DNA of 16,681 nt. It comes from a virus (lineage: Duplodnaviria; Heunggongvirae; Uroviricota; Caudoviricetes). Position 1 is the stretch's first letter. Each line of letters starts with the position of its first letter. This document shows positions 11,695-12,799 of the stretch, in pieces. The notes beneath the pieces were generated by a model. The model saw only the letters and a list, made by a program, of their open reading frames with translations. It was not told the origin of the DNA and made no database searches. The stretch lies in the IMG/VR virus record IMGVR_UViG_2541047909_000002. The stretch is one strand, 5' to 3'. The position numbers and the translations under genes are program-made.

Positions 11695-12240
11695 ATGGAA
11701 GTCAACAAAAAGCAGCTGGCTGACATTTTCGGTGCGAGTATCCGTACCATTCAGAACTGGCAGGAACAGGGAATGCCCGTTCTGCGAGGCGGTGGCAAGG
11801 GTAATGAGGTGCTTTATGATTCTGCCGCCGTCATAAAATGGTATGCCGAAAGGGATGCTGAAATTGAGAACGAAAAGCTGCGCCGGGAAGTTGAAGAACT
11901 GCGGCAGGCCAGCGAGACAGATCTCCAGCCAGGGACTATTGAGTACGAACGCCATCGACTTACGCGTGCGCAGGCCGACGCACAGGAGCTGAAAAATGCC
12001 AGAGACTCCGCTGAAGTGGTGGAAACCGCATTCTGTACTTTCGTGCTGTCGCGGATCGCAGGTGAAATTGCCAGTATTCTCGACGGGATCCCCCTGTCGG
12101 TGCAGCGGCGTTTTCCGGAACTGGAAAACCGACATGTTGATTTCCTGAAACGGGATATCATCAAAGCCATGAACAAAGCAGCCGCGCTGGATGAACTGAT
12201 AACGGGGCGCACTTTGACGGTGACCAGAGCGGCACGGTGA
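11695..12240 (+). CDS. nohA: Terminase small subunit Nu1 homolog (181 aa), C-terminal ~12 residues replaced by a deletion junction
   Basis: Matches recalled lambda Nu1 residue for residue through ...KAMNKAAALDELI, then diverges (TGRTLTVTRAAR) where lambda continues PGLLSEYIEQSG. Confidence 0.9.
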   Translation: MEVNKKQLADIFGASIRTIQNWQEQGMPVLRGGGKGNEVLYDSAAVIKWYAERDAEIENEKLRREVEELRQASETDLQPGTIEYERHRLTRAQADAQELKNARDSAEVVETAFCTFVLSRIAGEIASILDGIPLSVQRRFPELENRHVDFLKRDIIKAMNKAAALDELITGRTLTVTRAAR

Positions 12241-12502
12241 ATGGTGTCACGCCGCCAGCAGTTCAGCACCTGACCGCAGAAGTCACCGCAGACAGCGGGG
12301 AATACCAGGTGCTGGCGCGCTGGGACACGCCGAAGGTGGTGAAGGGGGTGAGCTTTATGCTTCGCCTGACCGTGGCAGCGGACGACGGCAGTGAGCGGTT
12401 GGTCAGCACGGCCCGGACGACGGAAACCACATATCGCTTCACGCAGCTGGCGCTGGGAAATTACAGGCTGACAGTCCGGGCGGTAAATGCATGGGGACAG
12501 CC
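12203..12502 (+). pseudogene. Internal fragment of tail tip/host specificity protein J (lambda J-like)
   Basis: Frame 3 encodes ...AEVTADSGEYQVLARWDTPKVVKGVSF...[13 protein letters not shown], matching an internal segment of lambda J as recalled; no start, flanked by junctions at about 12203 and 12502. Confidence 0.7.
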
Positions 12503-12799
12503 GGTGCACATACCCATTCGATGACATTTGTTTCAGGTGGTTCCAGTGGTGCTCCGGGAAGTGGATCACCTGATTATTCTAAATACAGTGTTAACACTTC
12601 TTCTGCAGGCGCTCATACGCACTCTGTATCGGGTACTGCTGCAAGCGCAGGTGCACACGCACATACTGTCGGTATTGGTGCTCATACGCACTCCGTTGCG
12701 ATTGGTTCACATGGACATACCATCACCGTTAACGCTGCTGGTAACGCGGAAAACACCGTCAAAAACATCGCATTTAACTATATTGTGAGGCTTGCGTAA
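12503..12799 (+). pseudogene. stfQ: C-terminal fragment of side tail fibre protein Stf
   Basis: Frame 2 encodes repeated GAHTHS/GAHAHT/GSHGHT motifs and ends ...[11 protein letters not shown]; out of frame with the upstream J fragment; stop overlaps the tfaQ start. Confidence 0.7.

Follow-up and report, generated by a model that had tools for sequence, protein, structure and literature searches.

The DNA analysed here (the window: a stretch of 16,681 nucleotides, IMG/VR record IMGVR_UViG_2541047909_000002) is a non-K-12 variant of Qin, a lambda-like cryptic prophage integrated at ydfJ in the Escherichia coli chromosome. The interval 12195-12510 of this window is a non-functional scar in a decaying Qin-family lambdoid prophage, where a truncated Nu1 gene (nohA) runs into an internal piece of the tail gene J and then into the end of the tail-fibre gene stf. 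Judging from the sequences that meet at the two junctions, the Qin morphogenetic genes were very probably taken out by two separate microhomology-mediated (illegitimate) deletions. Such a scar is ordinary prophage decay, and its pieces already figure as pseudogenes in RefSeq; its interest lies in the decay series to which it belongs and in a recurrent breakpoint within Nu1. Breakpoints in this gene pile up at one short sequence, CTGA/TA/CCGGGG. It is conceivable, although we stop short of calling it probable, that this sequence is a sequence-determined, one-sided site of DNA breakage or fork stalling, located in lambda-type Nu1 genes 14 nt upstream of the start of the terminase large-subunit gene, and that independent E. 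coli prophages, Qin and DLP12 among them, have repeatedly lost their morphogenetic genes because of it.

Results

Pieces of Nu1, J and stf meet at two junctions

The scar consists of three gene pieces, each in its own reading frame, and of the two junctions between them (positions are those of the window).

11695-12240, plus strand: nohA open reading frame (ORF), 181 aa, made of Nu1 residues 1-168/171 and 10 out-of-frame J residues (TGRTLTVTRAAR-type tail); from the translation
12198-12201, plus strand: junction 1, a GATA microhomology of Nu1 nt 504-507 and J nt 1798-1801; from a three-way alignment
12202-12497, plus strand: internal J fragment with the Ig_J domain, J residues ~601-699, a pseudogene remnant in frame 0; from the translation and Pfam
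12498-12501, plus strand: junction 2, a CAGC microhomology of J nt 2098-2101 and stf (positions 8001-8004 of locus L009); from an alignment
12502-12799, plus strand: C-terminal stf fragment with GAHTHS-type His-rich repeats (family D1), in frame 2; from the Pfam Phage_fiber repeat and a repeat scan

Over residues 1-171, which end at window position 12207, the nohA product shares 98% identity with lambda Nu1; it matches the Pfam family Phage_Nu1 (PF07471) over positions 1-164 of 164 (E = 3.9e-101), its last 10 residues being derived from J. The C-terminus of lambda Nu1 is the part that binds gpA. Translation of 12198-12500 gives lambda J residues 600-700 with 90% identity (E = 5e-66; Pfam Ig_J, 3.4e-36). 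A full-length J of ~1130 residues has N-terminal, Ig_J, tail-tip and C-terminal receptor-binding domains; the window retains Ig_J alone, with neither a native start nor a native end. This fragment is 100% identical to the J of a sister lineage, L166 (see below), and differs by 1 mismatch from that of strain 300709. Similarly, of the N-terminal attachment domain, shaft and His-rich repeats that make up Stf, only the last ~100 residues are left. They are 98.9% identical to the 3' end of stf in the Qin of strain CFSAN064036 (1007 aa), and the mechanical ORF that includes them (12491-12799) begins at an ATG within the J fragment. What the prophage has kept on either side of its losses is a short list: cos, a Nu1 without its last 10-13 codons, a 300-bp out-of-frame Ig_J piece, a 100-codon stf tail, and intact tfaQ and pinQ genes.

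The initial annotation had proposed this very succession, Nu1 to internal J to the Stf C-terminus in three reading frames, with breaks near 12203 and 12502. The lambda and Pfam matches and the alignment with CFSAN064036 bear out the succession, the start coordinates fall into three different frames (11695, 12198 and 12491 mod 3 = 1, 0 and 2), and the breaks as mapped lie within 1-5 bp of those proposed.

We considered whether the chimeric region codes for new functional proteins (the NohA variant, a 95-aa J-fragment ORF and a 102-aa stf ORF). All three ORFs are indeed open, the structure is 100% conserved across about 50 genomes, and rare variants (P0004 and P0033) bring Nu1 and J into one frame. 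However, the 100% identity reflects recent common ancestry, being just as high in the flanking 4-8 kb; neither the J piece nor the stf piece has its own start or its partner domains; sister lineages carry many alternative truncations; and RefSeq treats both pieces as partial pseudogenes, the 'phage tail tip protein J-related protein' being incomplete at both ends and the tail-fibre protein incomplete as well. A coding role for the chimera is thus hardly credible, and we read the region as a scar. Variant forms of junction 1 occur in proteins P0004, P0006 and P0033, where a single inserted nucleotide or the loss of two brings Nu1 and the J fragment into a common frame (275-276 aa); these could be genuine mutations or sequencing errors.

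As a map reference we used the near-complete Qin of E. coli CFSAN064036 (NZ_CP028166.1, about 786-835 kb), which shares with the window the ydfJ integration site and the flanking genes and is 98.5-99% identical to it on both sides of the scar. This prophage runs from int through nohA-A-...-J-lom-stf-tfaQ-pinQ, and its late region comprises nohA (546 bp), A, W, B, C, D, E, FI, FII, Z, U, V, G, T, H, M, L, K, I, J (3399 bp), lom, stf (3024 bp), tfaQ and pinQ. For each junction it contains the two parental sequences, correctly ordered and oriented, and unlike the window it has the full 21.4 kb of head and tail genes. Since its J allele shares only 93% identity with the J fragment of the window, it serves as a map reference and not as the literal ancestor.

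On this contiguous parent the flanks of both junctions are collinear and in the same orientation. At junction 1, where Nu1 reads ...GAACTGATACCGGGGTTG, J ...ATCGTGGATAACGGGGCGC and the window ...GAACTGATAACGGGGCGC, the crossover lies inside GATA, itself part of a 9-of-10 match (GATAnCGGGG); relative to CFSAN064036 this junction removes 16,624 bp, namely A through I plus the 5' 1.8 kb of J. At junction 2, where J reads ...TGGGGACAGCAGGGCG, stf ...CTGCTTCAGCCGGTGC and the window ...TGGGGACAGCCGGTGC, the crossover lies inside CAGC, and 4,754 bp are removed (the 3' part of J, lom and the 5' 2.7 kb of stf). The total loss amounts to 16,624 + 4,754 = 21,378 bp. The initial annotation had rightly seen the scars as the trace of lost head and tail genes, both sides being collinear with a near-complete Qin at the same chromosomal site, but its estimate of 15-20 kb was slightly too low; the microhomology that it had suggested looking for exists at both junctions, as the 4-bp GATA and CAGC.

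A few bases are shared at each crossover, and no IS (insertion sequence) end, target duplication, att core or recombinase site accompanies them; nor is there a long repeat or an invertase-type site at junction 1 or 2. Microhomologies of 4 bp in such surroundings are the signature of short-homology illegitimate recombination, and the other scars that we mapped in related prophages have microhomologies of 2-5 bp, again without IS or att sequences. Both deletions would then be RecA-independent, as far as the enzymology of deletion formation can be read from their products. An assembly artefact is ruled out by the identical structure in 51 complete E. coli genomes of unrelated sources.

K-12 Qin carries a different scar

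The region compared in K-12 was nohA-stfQ-tfaQ-pinQ (b1545-b1548). The K-12 prophage and the window have the ydfJ site and the gene order in common: a Nu1 truncated near its 3' end, a stf remnant, then tfaQ and pinQ. However, K-12 shows a single junction, GAATATA/ACCGCGC, about 25 bp further into Nu1, with a 320-codon stf remnant and no J fragment; its Nu1 reads on through ...GAGTGAATATA and then joins stf directly at ...ACCGCGCTGACAG. This different junction rules out a scar common to both prophages, which was the question that the initial annotation had raised about K-12. Given the different Nu1 position and the lack of a J fragment in K-12, the scars are independent events.

The annotated start of K-12 stfQ falls where lambda has the start codon of gene A (Nu1 nt 521, lambda 711), so that stfQ is in fact an A'-'stf fusion ORF. 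In this ORF (6886-8368 of the K-12 locus, L002) the first few codons of A are fused in frame to the C-terminal 316 residues of Stf.

To the left of the scar, identity between the window and K-12 Qin is 100% over 1-2059 and 99.85% over 3375-12207, whereas to the right (12608-16681) it is only 98.5%, a divergence about ten times that of the left side. This suggests that the two halves of Qin have had different histories in one of the two lineages, for example through recombination.

Distribution of the junctions and order of events

We surveyed 5,426 complete E. coli genomes, clonal relatives being included in the counts. Junction 1 was found in 51 of them and junction 2 in 90. A probe spanning both junctions recovered the same 51 genomes and one strain with a different left junction, and junction 1 without junction 2 was found in none of the genomes surveyed. 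The strains that have junction 2 and no junction 1 include some with other left-hand scars: 300709 shows Nu1/A-internal, B'/C', C'/G' and H'/J' scars and retains 1.9 kb of J; in F829 Nu1 is joined to J at reference position 17238; and in BUCT2930 and PK6 Nu1 nt 237 is joined to J at reference position 16859. Outside their scars these prophages are 99.9-100% identical to the window.

This pairing of junction 2 with varied left junctions in sister lineages argues that junction 2 is probably the older of the two. In the simplest history, a first deletion in a fairly complete prophage would have brought the last ~300 bp of stf next to J nt ~2100 at CAGC (junction 2), and each sub-lineage would later have undergone its own left-hand deletion, among them the one that joined Nu1 nt ~507 to J nt ~1798 at GATA (junction 1).

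Further Qin prophages show yet other structures: Nu1/B-end, C, D, E'/stf in 21EVA, A nt ~270/stf in 2018-05-2CC, and Nu1 nt 395/A fragment/tfa in MIN11. On the right-hand side, endpoints cluster in J, with five independent events within 125 bp (reference 17690-17814, concatenated coordinates; J residues about 560-600). Reference position 17691 (/TGGGGGCTGAAGC) has been used twice, in the internal J deletion of BL21 DLP12 and in protein P0044.

Locus L166, from an NCBI draft genome, bears directly on the origin of junction 1. As far as the Nu1 breakpoint its identity to the window is 99.97%. There, at the same Nu1 site, Nu1 runs into a satellite fragment, whose far end lies 23 bp upstream of the point where the window enters J. 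This insert between Nu1 and J (3506-5357) is 1.87 kb long and carries an integrase C-terminus, an AlpA-like gene and a TIR-domain gene. In WP8-S17-ESBL-12 (L170 3118-9630) the same DNA lies within a satellite-like element, with genes for an integrase, an AlpA-like regulator, a TIR-domain protein, an Icd-like protein, a primase and SSB, inserted in a lambdoid major capsid gene. A 1.85-kb int-alpA-TIR query was matched with at least 80% coverage in 36 complete E. coli genomes. As the satellite sits, in that other strain, in the capsid gene of a lambdoid prophage, L166 can be explained by two deletions in a satellite-carrying Qin; these two ordinary deletions suffice, and a templated insertion from a distant locus (template switching) is ruled out.

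Junction 1 might therefore have arisen in two steps. In a first, L166-type step, Nu1 would have been joined at its breakpoint site to the integrase of a satellite in the capsid gene, and the interior of the satellite separately joined to J; a deletion of 1.87 kb between two copies of GATAACGG would then have given exactly the CTGATAACGGGGCGC of the window. We hold this route to be unlikely, although it deserves serious attention. The near identity of L166 and the window on the left and their full identity over the J fragment, the presence of GATAACGG at both ends of the int'-alpA-TIR piece, and the nature of that piece as an internal part of a satellite seated in a lambdoid capsid gene all agree with it, and without it the chance of two independent J breakpoints falling only 23 bp from each other would be roughly 1%. 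However, L166 has no junction 2, and 300709, F829 and BUCT2930 have junction 2 together with J sequence upstream of the L166 entry and no satellite, so that the route needs an extra homologous exchange with a junction-2 lineage within or beside the 300-bp J fragment. Junction 1 on its own occurs in 0 of 5,426 complete genomes. Furthermore, J around 17.69-17.81 kb of the reference has been hit by several independent events, and the 23-bp proximity may simply mark a hot region.

We thus favour a direct Nu1-to-J deletion that followed junction 2, and several points weigh against this order. The J of L166 continues without junction 2, which makes this locus a possible precursor lacking it, and the 8-bp GATAACGG repeat that brackets the satellite fragment at both ends fits a two-step origin. 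The order of events is drawn by parsimony from presence and absence in complete genomes, not from a phylogeny, and recombination between E. coli lineages could have reshuffled the left and right halves of the prophage.

A recurrent breakpoint in Nu1

The left endpoint of junction 1 falls in a short stretch of Nu1 that recurs in many other fusions.

12196-12207, plus strand: Nu1 breakpoint hotspot H3, codons 168-171, canonical CTGA/TA/CCGGGG, in the window CTGATAACGGGG; from the fusion partners

About 30 distinct partner sequences, taken from public proteins and genomes, are joined to Nu1 within CTGA^T^A^, and one endpoint thus recurs at nucleotide resolution with many partners, as in a fixed-end hotspot. 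The similarity to Nu1 ends in CTGA/TA/CC in the window, 300709, F829, 21EVA, ET120 (a lambdoid remnant) and BL21 (DLP12), with partners that are all different. When the NohA of the window was used as query, 49 of the 120 best Nu1-like protein clusters diverged exactly after ...KAAALDEL(I); the ~27 tails found at that point come from A, B (two sites), C, E (three sites), FI, the Z/U boundary, V, K, I, J, lom (three sites), stf, tfa and an integrase, and only a handful of breaks fell in codons 170-181. As this truncated query favours late breakpoints, the search was repeated with residues 1-130 only. Codons 168/169 still formed a cluster (about 9 distinct events), now joined by a second peak at codons 138/139 (about 8 events) and a smaller one at 130/131 that includes MIN11. 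The sequences at these secondary peaks are GACGGGAT/CCCC and CAGCGGCGT/TTTCCGG (codons 130/131, about 12082-12090; codons 138/139, about 12106-12114).

All the junctions of the 26 partners that could be mapped fit an exchange in CTGA^T^A^, and TA is in register in 19 of them. Over these 26 events the six bases on the left flank show partial homology to Nu1 (mean 2.35 matches against a background of 1.54, p = 0.0004), as do the six bases on the right (2.19 vs 1.75, p = 0.025). Among viral contigs with the left flank ...GATGAACTGA, 7 of 120 continue non-canonically, all of them immediately after TA, and no contig with the right-flank sequence has a non-canonical left neighbour (0 of 138).

Clustering of this kind could in principle be the work of selection rather than of a mutational bias, if deletions that remove the start of gene A, harmful beside a chromosomal cos, and keep Nu1 were the ones to survive. 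The hotspot does lie 14 nt upstream of the A start, the K-12 junction falls just past that start and its stfQ is read from the A start codon, cos is retained, and all the events found are one-sided, removing A. However, a precision of 2 nt is beyond what selection on protein function would give: codons 170-181 are almost empty against about 27 distinct events at 168/169, deletions starting within A (2018-05-2CC) or earlier in Nu1 (MIN11, BUCT2930) persist, and breaks at the 130/131 and 138/139 peaks leave no intact Nu1 C-terminal domain. We consider selection improbable as the source of the clustering. It may explain the one-sidedness of the surviving deletions, through the removal of A beside an intact cos, but not their 2-nt precision.

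That the junctions were made at secondary sites by a site-specific recombinase, whether the adjacent PinQ invertase, an integrase or some other serine recombinase that crosses over at TA, we judge very improbable. In its favour, pinQ lies 1 kb downstream and the exchanges fit a TA dinucleotide, in register in 19 of 26 partners, superficially like a 2-bp staggered crossover. However, a search of the whole window with TTNTCNNAAACCNNGGTTTNNGANAA, allowing up to 3 mismatches, gave no Din-family (hix/gix/cix-type) match, and by inspection the flanks of the Nu1 TA are unlike the AAACC/GGTTT core. Furthermore, junction 2 (CAGC) and the other scars have unrelated microhomologies, the partner sites show a loose partial homology to Nu1 and no common motif, and invertases normally invert rather than delete. 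For PinQ or any other Din invertase, the lack in the window of a 26-bp crossover site of the AAACC-NN-GGTTT type rules out this role.

Among local features that might fix a breakpoint, the nearest Chi candidate, GCTGGATG at 12186-12193, is two positions off GCTGGTGG and was judged by eye to be too weak. An IS insertion at the hotspot followed by an IS-linked deletion is not fully excluded, although no IS is found at any junction; the known nu1::ISEc8 of O157 Sakai Sp4 lies at about Nu1 nt 276, away from the hotspot.

A mutational hotspot at CTGA/TA/CCGGGG is the explanation that we retain, in the tentative terms used above. It is weakened by the folding of the site, where a hairpin or cruciform is rejected, either strand folding no better than shuffled sequence (z = -0.23 and +1.02), and by the source of the counts, which come from clustered protein databases with ranking biases.

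Retained context of the scar

Three features of the remaining late region frame the scar.

11506-11517, plus strand: cosN cohesive-end sequence GGGCGGCGACCT, retained upstream of and outside the scar; read directly
12799-13374, plus strand: tfaQ, an intact tail-fibre assembly gene directly 3' of the scar; Pfam Caudo_TAP (E = 2.4e-43) and RefSeq annotation of the identical FORC 064 locus
13472-14062, minus strand: pinQ, an intact serine invertase gene; from annotation

The cosN sequence GGGCGGCGACCT is, we presume, identical to the left end of lambda. Between it and the truncated nohA the cosB-like region (11520-11694) is intact, with an inverted repeat, I1, at 11614-11670 upstream of nohA. This Qin variant thus keeps a chromosomal cos, and the gene for the terminase large subunit (A) is gone from the window. 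On the other side of the scar, tfaQ and pinQ are intact, yet the window has no Din-type crossover site, and the invertible tail-fibre segment appears to be gone.

Interval 11600-13400 matches many complete E. coli chromosomes at 100%, including the annotated Qin locus of FORC 064. In loci of that type the RefSeq order is nohA (DNA-packaging protein), a J-related piece, a tail-fibre piece, tfaQ and pinQ. The assignment to Qin follows from the ydfJ site, where the neighbouring ydfJ is 5'-truncated, and from the gene order relBE-hokD ... nohA, tfaQ, pinQ, ydfK; the Qin genes around the scar are flxA, relBE, hokD, rem, ydfU, a Q-like antiterminator gene, cspF/cspB, lysis genes, cspI, ydfO and ynfO. 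Near the 3' end of rem, at 2060-3374, the window carries an IS of the IS256 family (1,315 bp) that is absent from K-12 Qin. This element has a 402-aa Transposase_mut ORF (2132-3340). Its terminal inverted repeats, which start GAGCCTGT, are imperfect, and 8 bp of target sequence (ATAAAAGC) are duplicated.

Discussion

The ydfJ locus offers an unusually clean decay series, in which a near-intact Qin and at least eight truncated versions occupy one and the same site. As several members are 99.9-100% identical outside their scars, the deletions can be ordered and the rules of their junctions read directly. If the Nu1 hotspot is real, the decay of lambdoid prophages is partly channelled by a specific site rather than being a matter of random deletion, and the peaks at codons 130/131 and 138/139 would be further instances of this. 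Confirmation of the Nu1 site as a mutational hotspot would mean that local sequence partly decides in advance how an active prophage becomes a domesticated remnant, and the site would then be tractable for experiments on long-range, RecA-independent deletion formation in E. coli. One practical caution is in order whatever the cause: many database entries named 'terminase small subunit' are fusions of Nu1 with pieces of unrelated phage genes.

How could one end be fixed so precisely? We favour a fixed DNA 3' end or a stalled fork at the Nu1 site, which would re-pair downstream by means of TA and of the partial homology that flanks it. A nick or a staggered break at this site would also fit the pattern.

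Previous work on Qin places the window in a broad landscape. Ramisetty and Sudhakari (2019) report Qin in 48% of 638 strains, with sizes of 11 to 97 kb that they put down to mutation, deletion and super-integration (PMC6379469). The window is one such variant; nucleotide-level junctions and a Nu1 hotspot do not appear in the available portion of that article. Full-text searches of the literature yielded general accounts of Qin diversity and of lambda-prophage recombination, with no description of these junctions or of the hotspot that we could find.

Compared with lambda itself (J02459), the window has the same gene order and a Nu1 98% identical over residues 1-171, with 90% identity for J residues 600-700 and 74% for the Stf C-terminus. 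In lambda, however, these genes are intact, and the His-rich repeat region of the window stf is a different allele; at the DNA level phage matches to the window stf start only around 12602-12650.

The closest parallel to the hotspot comes from replication arrest. Bierne, Ehrlich and Michel reportedly described illegitimate recombination by short homology in which one endpoint was fixed at replication-arrest (Ter) sites. At the Nu1 site, no Ter-like sequence, bound protein or hairpin is evident, the distances extend to over 20 kb, and a role for replication would be assumed by likeness. Nevertheless, one fixed end, many partners, pairing at a terminal TA and weak flanking homology resemble the deletion hotspots of that system, in which one endpoint is likewise fixed within a few nucleotides and the other variable, the junctions have 0-5 nt of microhomology with partial homology in the flanks, and the events are one-sided.

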